18,936 nt of DNA from positions 1-18,936 of the IMG/VR virus record IMGVR_UViG_2529293138_000006. One strand, written 5' to 3'. The translations under genes were made by a program, and so were the position numbers. Below the pieces are notes generated by a model. That model saw only the letters and a program-made list of their open reading frames with translations, did not search any database and was not told the origin of the DNA. Position 1 is the stretch's first letter; every line of letters begins with the position of its first letter. The DNA is from a virus (taxonomy: Duplodnaviria > Heunggongvirae > Uroviricota > Caudoviricetes). Shown in pieces: positions 2,757 to 10,442 of this stretch.

Positions 2757-3427
2757 TGCTCCCCAAATACAAAACCAATTTCAGCCAGTGCCTCGTCCAT
2801 TTTTTCGATGAACTCCGGCACCATCTCGTCAAAACTCGCCATGTAATTTTCATCCCGCTCAACCACGACATAATGCAGGCCTTCACGCTTCATTCGTGGG
2901 TCATAGTTGGCAAAGTACCAGGCATCTTTTCGCGTCACCCACATGCTGTACTGCACCTGGGCCATGTAAGCCGACTTTATGGCCTCGAAACCACCGAGCC
3001 GGAATTTCATGAAATCCCGGGAGGTAAACGGGCATTTCAGTTCAAGGCCGTTGCCGTCACTGCATAAACCATCGGGAGAGCAGGCGGTGCGCATACTTTC
3101 GTCGCGATAGATGATCGGGGATTCAGTAACATTCACGCCGGAAGTGAACTCAAAGAGGGCTCTGGCGTCGTTCTCGTACTGTTTTCCCCAGGCCAGCGCC
3201 TTAGCGTTAACTTCCGGAGCCACACCGGTGCAAACCTCGGCAAGCAGGGTGTGGAAGTAGGACATTTTCATGTCAGGCCATTTCTTTCCGGAGCGGGGTT
3301 TTGCTATCACATTGTGAACTTCTGAAGCGGTGATGACGCCGAGCCGTAATTTGTGCCACGCATCATCCCCCTGTTCGACAGCTCTCACGTCGATCCCGGT
3401 ACGCTGCAGGATAATGTCCGGTGTCAT
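2747..3427 (-). CDS. exo: Lambda exonuclease (Red-alpha, 5'-3' dsDNA exonuclease), 226 aa
   Basis: Translation is near-identical to lambda Exo along its whole length ([72 protein letters not shown]...GFVFGEQWR). Confidence 0.95.
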
Positions 3428-4209
3428 GCAGCCACCTTCTGTTCAGAGGCTTTCTGTTTCAGGAATCCAAGAGCTTTCACTGCTTCGGCCTGTGTCAGTT
3501 CTGACGATGCGCGAATGTCGCGGCGAAATATCTGGGAACAGAGCGGCAATAAGTCGTCATCCCATGTTTTGTCCAGGGCAATCAGCAGAGTGTTAATCTC
3601 CTGCATGGTTTCATCGTTAACCGGAGTGATGTCGCGTTCCGGCTGACGTTCTGCAGTGTATGCGGTATTTTCGACAATGCGCTCGGCTTCATCCTTGTCA
3701 TAGATACCCGCAAATCCGAAGGCCAGACGGGCACACTGAATCATGGCTTTATGACGTAACATCCGTTTGGGATGCGACTGCCACGGTCCGGTGATTTCTC
3801 TGCCTTCGCGGGTTTTGAATGGTTCGCGGCGACATTCATCCATCCACTCGGTAACGCAGATAGGATGATTGCGGTCCTTGCGGTAAATCCGGCATGTGCA
3901 GGATTCATTGTCCTGCTCAAAGTCCATACCATCAAACTGCTGGTTTTCATTGATGATGCGGGACCAGCCATCAACGCCCACCACCGGAACGATGCCGTTC
4001 TGCTTATCAGGGAAGGCGTAAATTTCTTTCGTCCACGGATTAAGGCCGTACTGGTTGGCGACGATCAACAATGCGATGAACTGCGCATCGCTGGCATCAC
4101 CTTTAAATGCCGTCTGGCGAAGAGTGGTGATCAGTTCCTGTGGGTCGACAGAATCCATGCCGACACGTTCAGCCAGCTTCCCAGCCAGCGTTGCGAGTGC
4201 AGTACTCAT
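3424..4209 (-). CDS. bet: Lambda Bet (Red-beta) single-strand annealing protein, 261 aa
   Basis: Translation matches lambda Bet along its length; stop overlaps the exo start, as in lambda. Confidence 0.95.
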
Positions 4210-4214
4210 TCGTT

Positions 4215-4511
4215 TTATACCTCTGAATCAATATCAACCTGATGGTGAGCAATGGTTTCAACCATGTACCGGATGTGTTCCGCCATGCGCTCCTGAAACT
4301 CAACATCGTCATCAAATGCACGGGTAATGGCTTTTTTGCTGGCCCCGTGGCGTTGCAAATGATCGATGCATAGCGATTCAAACAGGTGCTGGGGCAGGCC
4401 TTTTTCCATGTCGTCTGCCAGTTCTGCCTCTTTCTCTTCATGGGCGATCTGCTGGTAGTGACGCGCCCAGCTCTGAGCCTCAAGACGATCCTGAATGTAA
4501 TAAGCGTTCAT
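4215..4511 (-). CDS. gam: Gam (short form, GamS) RecBCD inhibitor, 98 aa
   Basis: Translation [60 protein letters not shown]... matches lambda Gam. AGGAG SD upstream of the ATG. The upstream frame contains TAA stops, so only the short form is encoded. Confidence 0.93.
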
Positions 4512-4586: not shown

Positions 4587-4793
4587 TTAGTGATTCAGAC
4601 CGTTGCCGCGCCCGTCGAGAAAAACTTCCACGAGCAAGTCACGGGTATAAGTGCGCTCGATGCCGCGATGCAGATAAAGCCGTCCGCGTAAATTAGCTGA
4701 TGCAGTCCAGGTACCATCTTTGTGTTTGACCAGCATTCCTGGCATGACCGCGCCGCGATTAACGGTCTGCGTTCCGTAATGTTGATGAACCAT
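4587..4793 (-). CDS. Hypothetical small protein (68 aa from the internal start; the ORF extends to 4877) at the kil/cIII position
   Basis: First ORF downstream of the predicted PL. The internal ATG at 4793 has an excellent SD (AGGAG, 5 nt spacer); the longer 96 aa form starting at 4877 has a poor SD. Sequence not recognised as lambda Kil, CIII or N. Confidence 0.5.
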   Translation of the reverse strand: MVHQHYGTQTVNRGAVMPGMLVKHKDGTWTASANLRGRLYLHRGIERTYTRDLLVEVFLDGRGNGLNH

Positions 4794-5070
4794 AAAAACT
4801 CCTGCCCGTAAGCTGGGCTGCTGAACATATAGAGACTTCTGCGCGTATTCAGGCGGTGGATGGCCGCCGGTTGTCATAACTAAGCCGCCTCGTTGAAGCG
4901 ACTAAGGTATGAAATGTTGAGTTGATTTCAGCTGGTCACACCGACGTTCACGCGTCCGTTTCACCCCTCGCACTCCCCGAAGCCTGCTGAAATTCAAACT
5001 GCGGATCTAAGCGGTCATCGCAACGGTGAATCAGGTGGTTGCCGTATCGTTGTGTTGTTGCGATGAACTT

Positions 5071-5099
5071 ATTTAAAACTATAGTTGTTTTACCGTCAA
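5071..5099 (-). promoter_or_regulatory. Candidate PL early-left promoter (-35 TTGACG, 17 nt spacer, -10 TTAAAT on the minus strand)
   Basis: Read on the minus strand: GTTGTTGACGG taaaacaactatagt TTAAAT. The -35 is embedded in a GTTGTT...AACAAC operator palindrome, mirroring the PR arrangement. Confidence 0.5.
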
Positions 5100-5127
5100 C
5101 AACAAAAGTTGTTTTATTGGTTGTTTT
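5082..5127. promoter_or_regulatory. OL-type operator cluster (GTTGTT-N8-AACAAC and AACAAC-N4-GTTGTT palindromes plus further GTTGTT half-sites)
   Basis: Repeated GTTGTT/AACAAC half-sites as inverted repeats, the same half-site as the perfect palindrome at OR (6876-6900). Confidence 0.5.
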
Positions 5128-5237
5128 AGATATAACTGGTTGTATTTAGGATGGATTTATTTTGTGACTTGCATCGCATAGCGATAACTGAAGTGAGGTC
5201 GTGGTGGTTTTTTGAACGGTGTGTGATGAGGGGAGGG

Positions 5238-5268
5238 CAAAAGAAAACCCGGCACGGTGGCCGGGTTT
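5238..5268 (-). terminator. Rho-independent terminator ending the leftward repressor/cargo operon (t-imm analog)
   Basis: Perfect 6 bp GC stem (CCCGGC / GCCGGG) with a 6 nt loop; on the minus strand it is followed by TTTTCTTTTG. Lies about 75 nt downstream of the stop of the 5343..5786 gene. Confidence 0.65.
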
Positions 5269-5342
5269 AGATGATTGGTTAAGAGCGAGGGTAATGGGGA
5301 ATGAAAAATCGCTTTACCTAATGCAAGGGTGCGAGCATTTTC

Positions 5343-5786
5343 TTAAGCACTAAAGAAAAAGTACATTGATAGCTTATAAAGTCCTGTTCCTGCAGCGATG
5401 ATTGCTGGAACACCAAGCAATACCGCAAGCTTTGCGTCTGAAATCTTTCTATCGACAGCATCACTTGATGGCTTGTTTGTTAAGGATTCTTTTATAGAGT
5501 CCAGACGTGCAAGAATAGTTATCATATTTTTGTCGATAGCTTTAACGTCTGTTTTAAGTTCATCAACGTCTCGTTTGATATGAGCAACATCGGACTCCAG
5601 TTTTGCAACTTTTTCAGGCATGTTATCACTCCCAGACCCACTGCTACCACTTGATTGTAGCATGTCCCATCTTTTTCCAGATATACCTGCTAGCTGGGAA
5701 GACGCACTGGAGTGCAAACAAAATGATTTTGCCGCCTTTGCAATTTTATCATTTAGGTTTGGAGCTTCGTAATAATCGTGTTTCAT
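5343..5786 (-). CDS. Hypothetical C-terminally membrane-anchored coiled-coil protein (147 aa; alternative start at 5621 gives 92 aa) in the rexB-equivalent position
   Basis: Single predicted C-terminal TM helix (LAVLLGVPAIIAAGTGLYKL) preceded by a heptad-like charged stretch (EKVAKLESDVAHIKRDVDELKTDVKAIDKNMITILARLDSIKESL). Internal ATG at 5621 has a GGGAG SD with a 7 nt spacer. AT-rich relative to flanks. Same strand as and downstream of the repressor. Confidence 0.6.
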   Translation of the reverse strand: MKHDYYEAPNLNDKIAKAAKSFCLHSSASSQLAGISGKRWDMLQSSGSSGSGSDNMPEKVAKLESDVAHIKRDVDELKTDVKAIDKNMITILARLDSIKESLTNKPSSDAVDRKISDAKLAVLLGVPAIIAAGTGLYKLSMYFFFSA

Positions 5787-5798
5787 AATTAATTACGA

Positions 5799-6062
5799 TT
5801 AGTTTGTTTTAGCTTTGTCATGCTGGTCGCGAATGAAGTCAGCCAATTTAAGCATCAATTCTTCGGGCATTCTAATGGTTGCAATGTTGTACTTTATGTT
5901 CTCAACATCGTCACTTTCATCAACAGGCCATTCAGTTACATTATGAAAAAAAGAAATTGAACCTAGGCGCTGAGAGCCGTCACCAAACGAAGAGTAGCCA
6001 AACGCGTCGGCGTATGCATCGACACAGTTATTTGATTTTTTAACAAGTGTTTTATTACTCAT
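5799..6062 (-). CDS. Hypothetical acidic soluble protein (87 aa) in the rexA-equivalent position
   Basis: ORF with a good SD (GGGAAAGG) about 6 nt upstream of the ATG; ends 12 nt before the next ORF (operon-like). AT-rich. Not recognised. Confidence 0.6.
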   Translation of the reverse strand: MSNKTLVKKSNNCVDAYADAFGYSSFGDGSQRLGSISFFHNVTEWPVDESDDVENIKYNIATIRMPEELMLKLADFIRDQHDKAKTN

Positions 6063-6144
6063 TTTTTGCCTTTCCCGTAATGTTATTTTTTATAAGGTAT
6101 TTTCTTCAGCGTATTACCCAAAAGCCTCATCAACACGCGGCTGA

Positions 6145-6834
6145 TTATCCGTGTTTTCTGTACGTCTGCGGCATGCTCCCAATAACCTTACCGAAGATGA
6201 ACACCCGGTTCATCTCGTCTTTCTCGATCGGGTCCCACGGTGAGTAGCTTTTGTTATCAGAGATGACCAGCAGCTTATCCTTCATCATTTGCAGGCGCTT
6301 TACATGGGCTGTGTCGTCGTACAGAAACGCATAGATACCATCACCGTCGAAAGATTTAACTGTGATATCAACGAACAGCAGATCACCTGGTTCGATCGTT
6401 CCTGACATGCTGTCACCACGCACGTTAATGATGCGGATATTTTCCGCCTTCCTACCATCGAACATATGACGAGCATCGTCAAACGAGTACTCAACCGAGC
6501 GTAGAACTTCTACAAACTCACGGTTGATGACTCCCGGCCCAGCACTGACTTCTATATCAAGAACGTCAATCTTGAAGTATTTGGAATGGCTGACAGTTGA
6601 TTGTATTGGTTGCACTGTACTGTCTGACATATTTCCAACGCCAGAAGATAACCATTCTGCGCGCACACCCAAAGCGTTCGCGATCTCCACGATTTTAGTT
6701 GTTTGATTAGCTTTCCCTGTTTCGATTTTCTGAATAGCAGCTTGGCTAACCCCGACCAAATCCCCAAGCGCCTTTTGTGTAAGGCCTCGCGCTAATCTGG
6801 CTTCTTTAAGTCTTTCTGAGAGTGTTGTTTTCAT
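6145..6834 (-). CDS. Prophage repressor, cI-type (N-terminal XRE-family HTH, C-terminal S24 LexA-like autopeptidase), 229 aa
   Basis: HTH region (LKEARLARGLTQKALGDLVGVSQAAIQKIETGK), an Ala-Gly cleavage site (EVSAGPG), the catalytic Ser motif (GDSMSG) and a downstream Lys (HVKRL). Start chosen at MKTTLSERL (6834) rather than the ORF-track start at 6900. Divergent from the Cro-like gene. Confidence 0.9.
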   Translation of the reverse strand: MKTTLSERLKEARLARGLTQKALGDLVGVSQAAIQKIETGKANQTTKIVEIANALGVRAEWLSSGVGNMSDSTVQPIQSTVSHSKYFKIDVLDIEVSAGPGVINREFVEVLRSVEYSFDDARHMFDGRKAENIRIINVRGDSMSGTIEPGDLLFVDITVKSFDGDGIYAFLYDDTAHVKRLQMMKDKLLVISDNKSYSPWDPIEKDEMNRVFIFGKVIGSMPQTYRKHG

Positions 6835-6875
6835 AGTCCAAATGTACAACCAAGGTTTTATTTCATCAAACGAAA

Positions 6876-6900
6876 ATGGTTGTTGACTAAAAACAACCAT
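6876..6900. promoter_or_regulatory. OR operator: perfect palindrome ATGGTTGTT-N7-AACAACCAT
   Basis: A 9 bp perfect inverted repeat with a 7 bp spacer, lying between the divergent repressor and cro-like genes and overlapping the -35 of the predicted PR. A weaker related site is at 6845-6858 (ACAACCaaGGTTTT). Confidence 0.6.
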
Positions 6901-6911
6901 AGTTTTAATCT
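6883..6911 (+). promoter_or_regulatory. Candidate PR promoter (-35 TTGACT, 17 nt spacer, -10 TAATCT)
   Basis: Hexamers with 17 nt spacing upstream of the Cro-like gene; GGAGG SD at 6927-6931 precedes its ATG at 6939. Confidence 0.5.
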
Positions 6912-6938
6912 TGATTCAAATTAACCACGGAGGTTGTT

Positions 6939-7169
6939 ATGAACCCAGCTATCAAAACAGCGATCAATATCGTTGGTTCACAAAAGAAACTGGGCGCTGC
7001 TTGCGAAGTTTCACAGCAGGCCGTCTATAAGTGGCTTCACAACAAAGCAAAGGTATCCCCTGAACATGTCGGCAGCATTGTTACGGCTACTGGTGGAGTA
7101 GTGAAGGCATACCAGATTCGCCCGGATCTTCCGAAGTTGTTTCCACACACCGAAAAGAACGCAGCTTAA
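6939..7169 (+). CDS. Cro-like / YdaS-family small HTH regulator (76 aa)
   Basis: Small ORF divergent from the repressor with a strong SD. A helix-turn-helix-like segment (QKKLGAACEVSQQAVYKWLHNK) is present. Role inferred from position. Confidence 0.8.
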   Translation: MNPAIKTAINIVGSQKKLGAACEVSQQAVYKWLHNKAKVSPEHVGSIVTATGGVVKAYQIRPDLPKLFPHTEKNAA

Positions 7170-7181
7170 ATTTCCATTTCA

Positions 7182-7194
7182 CGCTCTTTAACAA
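7182..7194 (+). promoter_or_regulatory. boxA-like element (CGCTCTTTAACAA) at the nutR position
   Basis: Matches the NusB/NusE boxA consensus (GCTCTTTAACAA) 12 nt after the Cro-like stop codon. No convincing boxB hairpin follows. Confidence 0.45.
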
Positions 7195-7238
7195 TAAGCA
7201 ATCAACTTAACAGTCAATTCAAACTAAAGGAGTCAATT

Positions 7239-7982
7239 ATGCAACCACTTACATACCAACAGACTAGCGGATTTAGCCCGACTGCGGTGATAAATCGTTC
7301 TCAAACAAAACAGGTGCCAGGCCACGAAAAAATCCGTGATGCCGTCCGCGCTTGGTCGGCTGAAGATAATCAGGATGTCGTTGCCACACTCATTGTGAAT
7401 GAGTATCGGGAGCAGGGCGGCGGCACCATCGATTTCCCTGATGATGTCAGCCGTGCACGCCAGAAGCTGTTCCGCTTCCTCGATAACAAATTCGATTCTG
7501 AAAAATACCGAAATAACGTGCGTGAACTGACCCCGGCAATTCTGGCGGTACTACCGCTGGAATATCGCGGCCACCTGGTTGAGCAGGATAGCTTCATGGC
7601 TCGGCTGGCTGAAATGGAAAAGGAACTCAGTGAGGCAAAGCAGGCGGTCATTCTCAACGCACCACGCCACCAGAAACTGAAGGAGATGAGTGAAGGCATT
7701 GTGTCGATGTTTCGAGTGGACCCGGATCTGGCTGGTCCATTGATGGCGATGGTCACCACCATGCTGGGGGCAATATGGCAGGTTCAAAAATGGCGAAAGT
7801 CGGTCTGCGGGAACAGAACCGACTTTCAGGTGCAAATCGTAACACACTCATTGCGGGAGGAATTATGGCAAACACTGCTGAGATATTCAATTTTCCAGTG
7901 CCGGATGCGGCACAAAAGGAGCCGCGCGTGGCAGATCTCGATGATTATACGCGCATTGCAAATGAGTTGCTGGAAGCTGTAA
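7239..7982 (+). CDS. Hypothetical protein at the cII position (possibly a CII/YdaT-like regulator); C-terminal extent uncertain
   Basis: ORF starting with a good SD (AAAGGAG) after the boxA region. The last ~70 codons overlap the O-like start by 118 nt and have an atypical W/Q/R/C-rich composition, suggesting either a shorter true gene or a frameshift. Confidence 0.45.
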   Translation: MQPLTYQQTSGFSPTAVINRSQTKQVPGHEKIRDAVRAWSAEDNQDVVATLIVNEYREQGGGTIDFPDDVSRARQKLFRFLDNKFDSEKYRNNVRELTPAILAVLPLEYRGHLVEQDSFMARLAEMEKELSEAKQAVILNAPRHQKLKEMSEGIVSMFRVDPDLAGPLMAMVTTMLGAIWQVQKWRKSVCGNRTDFQVQIVTHSLREELWQTLLRYSIFQCRMRHKRSRAWQISMIIRALQMSCWKL

Positions 7983-8791: not shown

Positions 8792-9489
8792 AAAACATCG
8801 CCGCACAGATGATTAACTTTGACCGTGAGCAGATGCGTCGGATCGCCAACAACATGCCGGAACAGTACGACGAAAAGCCTCAGGTACAGCAGGTAGCGCA
8901 GATCATCAATGGTGTGTTCAGCCAGTTACTGGCAACTTTCCCGGCGAGCCTGGCTAACCGTGACCAGAATGAACTGAACGAAATCCGCCGCCAGTGGGTT
9001 CTGGCTTTCCGGGAAAACGGGATCACCACAATGGAACAGGTTAACGCTGGAATGCGCGTAGCCCGTCGGCAGAATCGACCATTTCTGCCATCACCCGGGC
9101 AGTTTGTTGCATGGTGCCGGGAAGAAGCATCCGTTATCGCCGGACTGCCAAACGTCAGCGAGCTGGTTGATATGGTTTACGAGTATTGCCGGAAGCGAGG
9201 CCTGTATCCGGATGCGGAGTCTTATCCGTGGAAATCAAACGCGCACTACTGGCTGGTTACCAACCTGTATCAGAACATGCGGGCCAATGCGCTTACTGAT
9301 GCGGAATTACGCCGTAAGGCCGCAGATGAGCTTGTCCATATGACTGCGAGAATTAACCGTGGTGAGGCGATCCCTGAACCAGTAAAACAACTTCCTGTTA
9401 TGGGCGGTAGACCTCTAAATCGTGCACAGGCTCTGGCGAAGATCGCAGAAATTAAAGCTAAGTTCGGACTGAAAGGAGCAAGTGTATGA
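8788..9489 (+). CDS. P: Lambda P replication protein (DnaB helicase loader), 233 aa
   Basis: Translation is near-identical to lambda P over its full length; ATG overlaps the O stop (ATGA). Confidence 0.95.
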   Translation: MKNIAAQMINFDREQMRRIANNMPEQYDEKPQVQQVAQIINGVFSQLLATFPASLANRDQNELNEIRRQWVLAFRENGITTMEQVNAGMRVARRQNRPFLPSPGQFVAWCREEASVIAGLPNVSELVDMVYEYCRKRGLYPDAESYPWKSNAHYWLVTNLYQNMRANALTDAELRRKAADELVHMTARINRGEAIPEPVKQLPVMGGRPLNRAQALAKIAEIKAKFGLKGASV

Positions 9490-9788
9490 CGGGCAAAGAG
9501 GCAATTATTCATTACCTGGGGACGCATAAGAGCTTCTGTGCACAGGACGTTGCCGCGGTAACAGGCGCAACCGTAACCAGCATAAATCAGGCTGCGGCTA
9601 AAATGGCGCGGGCAGGAATCCTGGTCGTTGATGGTAAGGTCTGGCGAACGGTGTATTACCGGTTCGCTACCAGAGAAGAACGGGAAGGAAAGGTGAGCAC
9701 GAATCTGATTTTTAAGGAGTGTCGCCAGAGTGCCGCGATGAAACGCGTATTGAGGGTATATAAAAGAACATCAATGGGTACACAATGA
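9486..9788 (+). CDS. ren: Ren (Rex exclusion protein), 100 aa
   Basis: Translation MTGKEAIIHYLGTHKSFCAQDVAAVTGATVTSINQAAAKMARAGILVVDGKVWRTVYYRFATREEREGK... matches lambda Ren; overlaps the P stop. Confidence 0.9.
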   Translation: MTGKEAIIHYLGTHKSFCAQDVAAVTGATVTSINQAAAKMARAGILVVDGKVWRTVYYRFATREEREGKVSTNLIFKECRQSAAMKRVLRVYKRTSMGTQ

Positions 9789-9855
9789 TGAAACAGGTGA
9801 GTTGATTTCAAACTGTAGTACAATTCTCTCCAGTTTGAACAGGAAAGAATATGCT

Positions 9856-10188
9856 ATGAACCCTTATATTTATCTTGGTGGTGCAATACTTGCAGAGGTC
9901 ATTGGTACAACCTTAATGAAGTTTTCAGAAGGTTTTACACGGTTATGGCCATCTGTTGGTACAATTATTTGTTATTGTGCATCATTCTGGTTATTAGCTC
10001 AGACGCTGGCTTATATTCCTACAGGGATTGCTTATGCTATCTGGTCAGGAGTCGGTATTGTCCTGATTAGCTTACTGTCATGGGGATTTTTCGGCCAACG
10101 GCTGGACCTGCCAGCCATTATAGGCATGATGTTGATTTGTGCCGGTGTGTTGGTTATTAATTTATTGTCACGAAGCACACCACATTAA
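9856..10188 (+). CDS. emrE: EmrE small multidrug resistance (SMR) efflux transporter, 110 aa
   Basis: Translation from MNPYIYLGGAILAEVIGTTLMKFSEGFTRLWPSVGTIICYCASFWLLAQTLAYIPTGIAYAIWSGVGIVLISLLSWGFFGQRLDL... matches E. coli EmrE. Four TM helices are evident. Same location (after ren) as in the DLP12 prophage. Confidence 0.93.
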   Translation: MNPYIYLGGAILAEVIGTTLMKFSEGFTRLWPSVGTIICYCASFWLLAQTLAYIPTGIAYAIWSGVGIVLISLLSWGFFGQRLDLPAIIGMMLICAGVLVINLLSRSTPH

Positions 10189-10217
10189 AATAATTTGTTT
10201 CTAAACGACTAAAATAT

Positions 10218-10250
10218 GGAGGCTCTTATATTTATATGAGCCTCGTTTTA
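10218..10250 (+). terminator. Rho-independent terminator downstream of emrE
   Basis: Perfect 7 bp stem GAGGCTC...GAGCCTC with a 12 nt AT loop, followed by GTTTTATGCTTTTTG. Confidence 0.6.
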
Positions 10251-10442
10251 TGCTTTTTGTTAATGTCTTTATTTTTTATGTATTCTTTTGTGCTTTCAAG
10301 ATTATGGCGTAAGAAAATTGCAATACGATTATTGTTGTATATTCAAGATAATGTGACCTTAATTGTCTTTTTAAATAAAAATTAAACAAAAATTATATCC
10401 CACCACTAAGGTTTATAAAAGCATACGTTAGCAGGTGTCACC

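Follow-up and report, generated by a model that had tools for sequence, protein, structure and literature searches.

What is the function of the two small genes that lie directly after the repressor gene of a lambdoid prophage, in the place where lambda carries rexA and rexB? The window (the whole stretch of 18,936 nt analysed here) covers the early region of a lambdoid prophage of E. coli. The original prediction described the two genes, named A and B in this work, as an acquired cargo cassette and suggested that they could form an abortive-infection effector (B) with a soluble partner (A).

Gene order and the lambda rexA-rexB position

The gene order of the window is int, exo, bet, gam, kil, a leader without N, OL/pL, a terminator, B, A, cI, cro, a YdaT/CII-like gene, O and P. 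The features on which the analysis is based are:

3424-4209: bet
4215-4511: gam
4587-4877: kil
5073..5130, unstranded: OL-like operator repeats, presumably with pL, with half-sites GGTTGTT/AACAACC
5268-5245, minus strand: intrinsic terminator with a 9-bp stem (6 G-C pairs) and a T-run, which closes the cI-A-B unit
5343-5786, minus strand: gene B, long form of 147 aa, phrog_3556; the 147-aa form is the one called by RefSeq
5343..5621, minus strand: gene B, putative short form of 92 aa, with an internal ATG (5621-5619) and a GGGAG Shine-Dalgarno sequence (5633-5629)
5373..5432, minus strand: predicted transmembrane (TM) helix of B, residues 119-138, LAVLLGVPAIIAAGTGLYK, KD19 maximum 1.8, the most conserved segment of the family
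5799-6062, minus strand: gene A, 87 aa, phrog_4231
6063..6144, minus strand: cI-A spacer of 82 nt; no minus-strand hit in the terminator scan
6145..6834, minus strand: cI-type repressor with HTH_3 (6.5e-13) and Peptidase_S24 (1.5e-18) domains according to Pfam; phrog_4, transcriptional repressor

The cI-type repressor is presumed to be the first gene of a pRM-type operon. Transcription from the repressor promoter is expected to continue into A, since the cI-A spacer contains no terminator on the minus strand; the stop codon of A is separated from the start of B by a gap of 12 nt. This anatomy (cI, no terminator, A, 12-nt gap, B, terminator) is operon-like. The terminator at 5268-5245, which is the equivalent of lambda timm, is the left boundary of the slot and is kept in sibling phages. 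The half-sites of the OL-like repeats (5073-5127) are also found in the OR palindrome at 6876-6900. With cI upstream of the cassette, and the terminator and then the OL-like repeats downstream, the cassette occupies the interval from cI to OL/pL, where the lambda map has rexA-rexB. The operator half-sites thus agree with the rexAB slot that had been predicted, and the higher AT content claimed for the cassette was also found, with a GC content of 0.39 in the cassette versus 0.465 in cI, 0.52 in exo-bet-gam-kil and 0.453 in the whole window.

Two further observations were made in the regions next to this unit. No N gene is present between pL and kil, where a leader of approximately 260 nt (4880-5140) shows 95-99% conservation in a group of lambdoid phages that includes PhiR5_1, PhiR34_1, Turner and 4A7. 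This leader might be an antiterminator RNA of the HK022 put type; a search of the leader for put-type RNA gave no match in Rfam, and its predicted fold was no stabler than that of shuffled sequence (z=+0.59). On the plus strand, the YdaT/CII-like ORF (7239-7982) shows TGG at 7776-7778, where the prophages of SE11 and 2014C-3307 have a TGA stop. By the loss of this stop the ORF becomes 68 codons longer and overlaps the start of O, which could be due to prophage decay or to a sequencing error.

Products of genes A and B

Both genes are annotated in RefSeq as encoding hypothetical proteins. Searches of A and B against Pfam, NCBIfam and PADLOC (PADLOC-DB v2, 5027 models) gave nothing significant, and the PHROGs matches were limited to families of unknown function, in agreement with the earlier statement that neither protein resembles RexA/RexB or known exclusion and toxin-antitoxin proteins. 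Furthermore, A and B are not listed in the DefensePredictor supplements. In the literature, whose coverage was incomplete, we found no paper naming the accession numbers and no published test of the pair, and nothing on the pair in the work on the rex slot, XhlA and sieA.

Protein A is mildly acidic (14 D/E versus 10 K/R, pI 4.96) and shows no hydrophobic segment, as expected from its description as an acidic soluble protein. Its predicted fold (AF2, pLDDT 78) consists of four beta strands followed by a C-terminal helix. A profile search with A found only 8 clusters among 1.84 billion representatives, none of them informative, and the fold search against BFVD gave one unnamed match of 93 aa (E=9e-3). 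No match to A was obtained in the profile search against PDB; profile and structure searches, BFVD and PDB profiles included, gave no known function for A or for B.

Protein B is predicted to contain a variable N-terminal region (residues 1-42), a Gly/Ser linker (43-55), a coiled coil (56-103), a KPS juxtamembrane helix and a single hydrophobic segment (about residues 119-138), which corresponds to the C-terminal TM helix. The AF2 model, of low confidence (pLDDT 62), shows helices at 11-33, 56-103 and 108-146 and disorder at 34-55, and supports the coiled coil and the single TM helix that had been proposed. Mean pairwise identity in the family is 22% in the N-terminus, 35% in the linker and 57% in the coiled coil, and rises to 77% in the juxtamembrane segment (KKPSxDAVDKKISDAK) and 82% in the TM helix (LLGVPAIIAxGTGxYK), with 31% in the last residues. 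According to this alignment, constraint on B, a predicted tail-anchored protein, is strongest in the TM helix and in the segment next to it, which would not be so if the helix were a passive anchor.

In PADLOC, B matched only coiled-coil regions of PbeC, LmuB and JetC, with E values of 0.004 or weaker, and its profile search against PDB gave only generic coiled coils. The resemblance to XhlA that had been pointed out is one of architecture, both being short phage proteins in which a cytoplasmic coiled coil at the N-terminus is followed by one TM helix at the C-terminus; however, membership in the family (PF10779) was rejected, with 14.1 bits and E=0.053 versus a gathering score of 34.7. Only one of 20 family members matched at E<0.01, and generic coiled-coil families matched more often. 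Weak matches to phrog_1193 and phrog_937 (“hemolysin”) were also obtained, at 1e-4 and 1e-3. In addition, XhlA of PBSX and phages of Gram-positive bacteria belongs to a late lysis cassette, whereas B is located in a lysogenic immunity operon of Gram-negative prophages, and the lysis genes of the window are found near 16.6-17.6 kb, away from B.

The ambiguity between 92 and 147 aa for B proved to be real, since the internal ATG is preceded by a GGGAG 7 nt upstream. The ATG at 5786, which starts the long form, has no Shine-Dalgarno sequence; in every locus the start of the long form is only a few nucleotides from the stop codon of the partner gene, or overlaps it. Each of the eight loci that were inspected has a GGAGG, GGGAG or GGGGG motif whose end lies 4-7 nt before the conserved first codon of the core; this codon is ATG, except for GTG in the 79.5%-identical E. 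coli allele. Gene callers often start B at the internal ATG, as in P0010 and P0014. The conservation of an internal Shine-Dalgarno sequence and start codon suggests that B may be made as long (147 aa) and short (92 aa) isoforms, although the GG-rich motif also encodes the Gly-rich linker and its conservation could therefore be at the protein level. Such a pair of products would resemble lambda S107/S105 and P22 sieB/esc. Versions of B with 173-175 aa have N-terminal extensions conserved between Rahnella and Citrobacter, so the long form is clearly coding there.

The profile search with B found 179 homologues, none with a Pfam domain and one labelled “Hemolysin XhlA” in the source database. The family is widespread in Enterobacterales. 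Its members in lambdoid and Rac-like prophages of Klebsiella, Salmonella and Citrobacter invariably come second after the repressor, which is either of the S24 type (217-251 aa) or of the 155-aa Phage_CI_repr type. Two copies lie elsewhere: in Pantoea at a prophage end, beside tail genes, and in Rahnella at a locus with no phage genes seen among the neighbours. At least three sequence-unrelated classes of partner gene precede B, which are the A type (87-99 aa), a 93-aa type (phrog_12039) and a type of 136-153 aa, and the N-terminal extension of B differs by partner class. A fold shared by A and the 93-aa class was considered and rejected, as the hhalign comparison was not significant (probability 0.25%).

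Comparison with the P22-like Salmonella phage UPF_BP1 delimits the exchanged parts:

5614..6090, unstranded: exchange module, made of gene A and codons 1-57 of B, 84.5% identity with UPF_BP1

Nucleotide homology to UPF_BP1 is confined to this stretch (query 415-891 of window positions 5200-6200). The B cores of this window and of UPF_BP1 belong to different lineages, with the junction exactly at the boundary between linker and core. Because the homology ends there, A and the N-terminus of B form one exchangeable module and the core of B another; since the first two are exchanged together, we infer that A works with the N-terminal region of B.

Some modules of the family carry additional small genes. 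A third gene after B was observed in Citrobacter (L022 4474-4854), which encodes 126 aa with a lipoprotein-like signal (…LTGC), and in Serratia (L029 4957-5262), which encodes 101 aa with a signal-peptide-like N-terminus and belongs to phrog_19844. Furthermore, a conserved gene of phrog_3975 (65-74 aa) is found directly downstream of B, and convergent to it, in loci of Klebsiella, Salmonella and Citrobacter (L009 4303-4509, L016 4294-4500, L022 4886-5110 and L025 4552-4749). In this window, only the terminator is found at that place.

Exchange and spread of the cassette

The full cassette was found in 198 of the 5,426 complete E. coli genomes (about 4%), always annotated as hypothetical. An allele with at least 99% identity is present in 151 genomes, the O26:H11 lineage among them, an allele with 79.5% identity in about 50, and the P22-type copy in four. 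The dN/dS of A is 0.086 against the 79.5%-identical E. coli allele and 0.045 against the P22-type copy, and that of the B core is 0.118 against the 79.5% allele. These low values (0.05-0.12) indicate purifying selection on A and the B core and therefore real genes. In the N-terminal 54 codons of B, dN/dS is 0.5-0.6; this part is open in every allele and its MKHDYYEAPNL start is kept. In one E. coli genome, P0070 is a 134-aa in-frame fusion of approximately the first 57 residues of A to the coiled coil and TM helix of a P22-type B, and probably arose from the pair by a deletion.

Two phages, PhiR34_1 and Turner, match this window on the left up to and including the terminator and on the right from the last codons of cI onwards, and only some 130 bp lie in the slot itself. 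The limits of the cargo were set from these empty slots:

5270..6160, unstranded: cargo segment; homology to PhiR34_1 and Turner stops just past the terminator stem and resumes in the last codons of cI

The empty slots indicate that the cargo, about 5270-6160, is dispensable for phage growth. These alignments show the cassette to behave as exchangeable, mobile cargo, as the original prediction proposed. The cassette is moreover tied to more than one immunity type, given that homology to the prophages of SE11 and 2014C-3307 breaks within cI (~6596) and resumes at 7238. The DNA shared with these two prophages comprises the cassette and the C-terminal half of cI, while the DNA-binding half of cI and cro (window ~6596-7238) are of another immunity type than in SE11/2014C-3307.

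Sibling phages with the same terminator and pL leader carry their cargo directly after cI and co-oriented with it. The contents of the slot are:

PhiR5_1: HipA_2 kinase and DUF3037 protein (“HipA/HipD” of the depositors), PADLOC PDC-M66A/B
PhiR47_2: “GevT/GevA”, PADLOC PDC-M11A/B (E=2e-133 and 7e-52), a PDC-M11A protein with an ASCH-domain protein
PhiR68_2: unannotated proteins of 341 and 149 aa, no Pfam or PADLOC match
Perceval: a 340-aa protein and a 168-aa protein annotated as transmembrane, no Pfam or PADLOC match
PhiR34_1 and Turner: slot empty

The slot after cI is a hotspot for two-gene cargo, and two of the cargo pairs match PADLOC defence candidates, which fits the expectation that defence genes gather at this position. 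The pairs of PhiR5_1 and PhiR47_2 are, like A and B, two-gene units directly after cI with the same flanks and orientation; however, their proteins are unrelated to A and B and none is a membrane protein.

Among 50,697 sequenced phage records, the pair was found in one, UPF_BP1, and it is absent from all deposited PhiR phages. Its presence in a single record suggests that most copies reside in possibly defective prophages. In UPF_BP1 and in a P22-like prophage of E. coli, the pair is flanked by gene 16 and mnt, with an overlap of 8 nt between the mnt stop and the start of A. Overlaps with mnt, of 8 and 4 nt, were also observed for distant homologues of A in Serratia marcescens and another P22-like prophage, where the next gene encodes a protein of phrog_5820 (207-225 aa). 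This is a family other than B with a B-like architecture (low-complexity N-terminus, coiled coil, single TM helix). In P22, Mnt acts as the maintenance repressor of immI, and the translational coupling of A to mnt would therefore imply expression in the lysogen. The pair is thus found in two kinds of lysogeny operon, behind cI in one and behind mnt in the other, and its co-expression with the lysogenic repressor, which had been proposed for the cI locus, is strongly implied by this gene organization.

Candidate functions of the pair

The reading that we prefer, with a probability of about 0.4 and on the basis of genomic context, is that the cassette is a phage-exclusion moron expressed in the lysogen, which would act by triggered membrane permeabilisation in a Rex-like abortive infection. 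The lysogen would transcribe A and B together with the prophage repressor. Protein A, probably oligomeric, would bind the N-terminal region of long-form B and either set specificity or hold B inactive. A phage cue at infection would alter the A-B complex, after which the coiled-coil/TM core of B would oligomerise and compromise the inner membrane, with an outcome analogous to the abortive infection caused by RexA-RexB. The internal start probably gives a short B consisting of the core only, and the long and short forms might work like antiholin and holin or like SieB and Esc.

The cassette and RexA-RexB share a location between the repressor and OL/pL, the orientation of cI and a closing terminator, with the soluble protein first and the membrane protein second, and expression in the lysogen is expected for both. 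However, searches in Pfam, PADLOC and NCBIfam revealed no sequence similarity of A or B to RexA or RexB. RexA has approximately 279 aa, compared with the 87 aa of A, and RexB is a polytopic protein with four TM segments, while B is a predicted single-pass, tail-anchored coiled coil. A prophage-expressed pair of a cytosolic and a membrane protein, gp30/gp31 of mycobacteriophage Sbash, reportedly has a proposed role in aborting infection; its host belongs to another phylum, and the likeness to A and B is by description, with no homology expected. A defence role is plausible by association, and A and B would then be a functional analogue of the Rex and Sie cassettes built from unrelated parts.

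We consider rather doubtful the wider proposal that the B core represents a new and widespread class of tail-anchored effector. Such a class would have dual-start isoforms and at least three swappable sensor modules, each made of a partner and the matching B N-terminus, and would permeabilise the membrane when triggered by phage, from within cI and Mnt operons. If the defence reading is true, the pair would be a defence family new to PADLOC-DB v2 (2023), present in ~4% of complete E. coli genomes, including O26:H11 STEC, and with relatives across Enterobacterales. One membrane effector would then be re-targeted by swapping a small sensor module, and the pair (87 aa + 147 aa) would be a compact system in which to study the activation of a tail-anchored coiled-coil protein, with PhiR34_1 and Turner, which have identical flanks and an empty slot, as a natural clean control.

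An unlikely alternative in our judgement is superinfection exclusion, in which inner-membrane B together with A would block the genome-injection machinery or a host entry factor with no killing of the cell; P22 SieA and HK97 gp15 act by such a block of DNA entry. It is suggested by the P22-like prophages, in which the pair stands in for orf59a-sieA downstream of mnt: P22 itself carries orf59a-sieA at this place between gene 16 and mnt, and the product of sieA is also an inner-membrane protein. Among P22-like phages, only 22 of 66 carry sieA (PMC10883804). The high identity of the TM helix, in a protein of the inner membrane, would be expected if B touched a conserved host membrane protein; however, at most about 9 residues of B would be periplasmic, and the variable, presumably specificity-setting parts (A and the B N-terminus) would be cytosolic. 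Furthermore, SieA is one polytopic protein, expressed from a promoter of its own, whereas A and B are a two-gene unit coupled to mnt, and neither A nor B shows similarity to SieA, its FxRYPxEAxxFNK motif or its polytopic topology.

RexAB of lambda also affects the lysis-lysogeny switch, so that genes in the rex slot can serve beyond defence. The pair could serve the prophage itself, either as an addiction module, with B as toxin and A as its neutraliser, or by modulating the switch between lysogeny and lysis or the timing of lysis, which we regard as very unlikely. The order of the genes, with a small acidic protein upstream and a membrane protein downstream, would suit this role, as would the toxin-antitoxin-like pairs in the same slot of neighbouring phages, the resemblance of the dual start of B to holin/antiholin genes and the presence of the pair in operons of two different maintenance repressors. 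However, PhiR34_1 and Turner are functional phages without the cassette, the module is also found away from repressors at the Pantoea prophage end and the Rahnella locus, and the A::B-core fusion P0070 argues against lethality of B without an intact A.

A host-physiology moron, in which C-tail-anchored B with A as cofactor would alter stress tolerance or ribosome/membrane physiology, as ElaB, YqjD and YgaM do, is in our view also very unlikely. B resembles tail-anchored proteins of E. coli in size and architecture, and about 150 E. coli genomes, O26:H11 included, have retained the cassette with at least 99% identity, but no DUF883 or other Pfam match was obtained at E<=1, and rapid swapping of the partner and N-terminus is typical of conflict systems and not of housekeeping.

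Finally, the prophage of E. coli 2014C-3307 (L032), whose cassette is 100% identical to that of this window, shows other defence-like cargo in other slots: a gene for a DGQHR-domain protein beside exo (9332-10396) and one for a NACHT-domain protein after ren (17825-19720). In this window, the region after ren contains SE11-like sequence instead, which in SE11 is annotated with emrE and ybcK.
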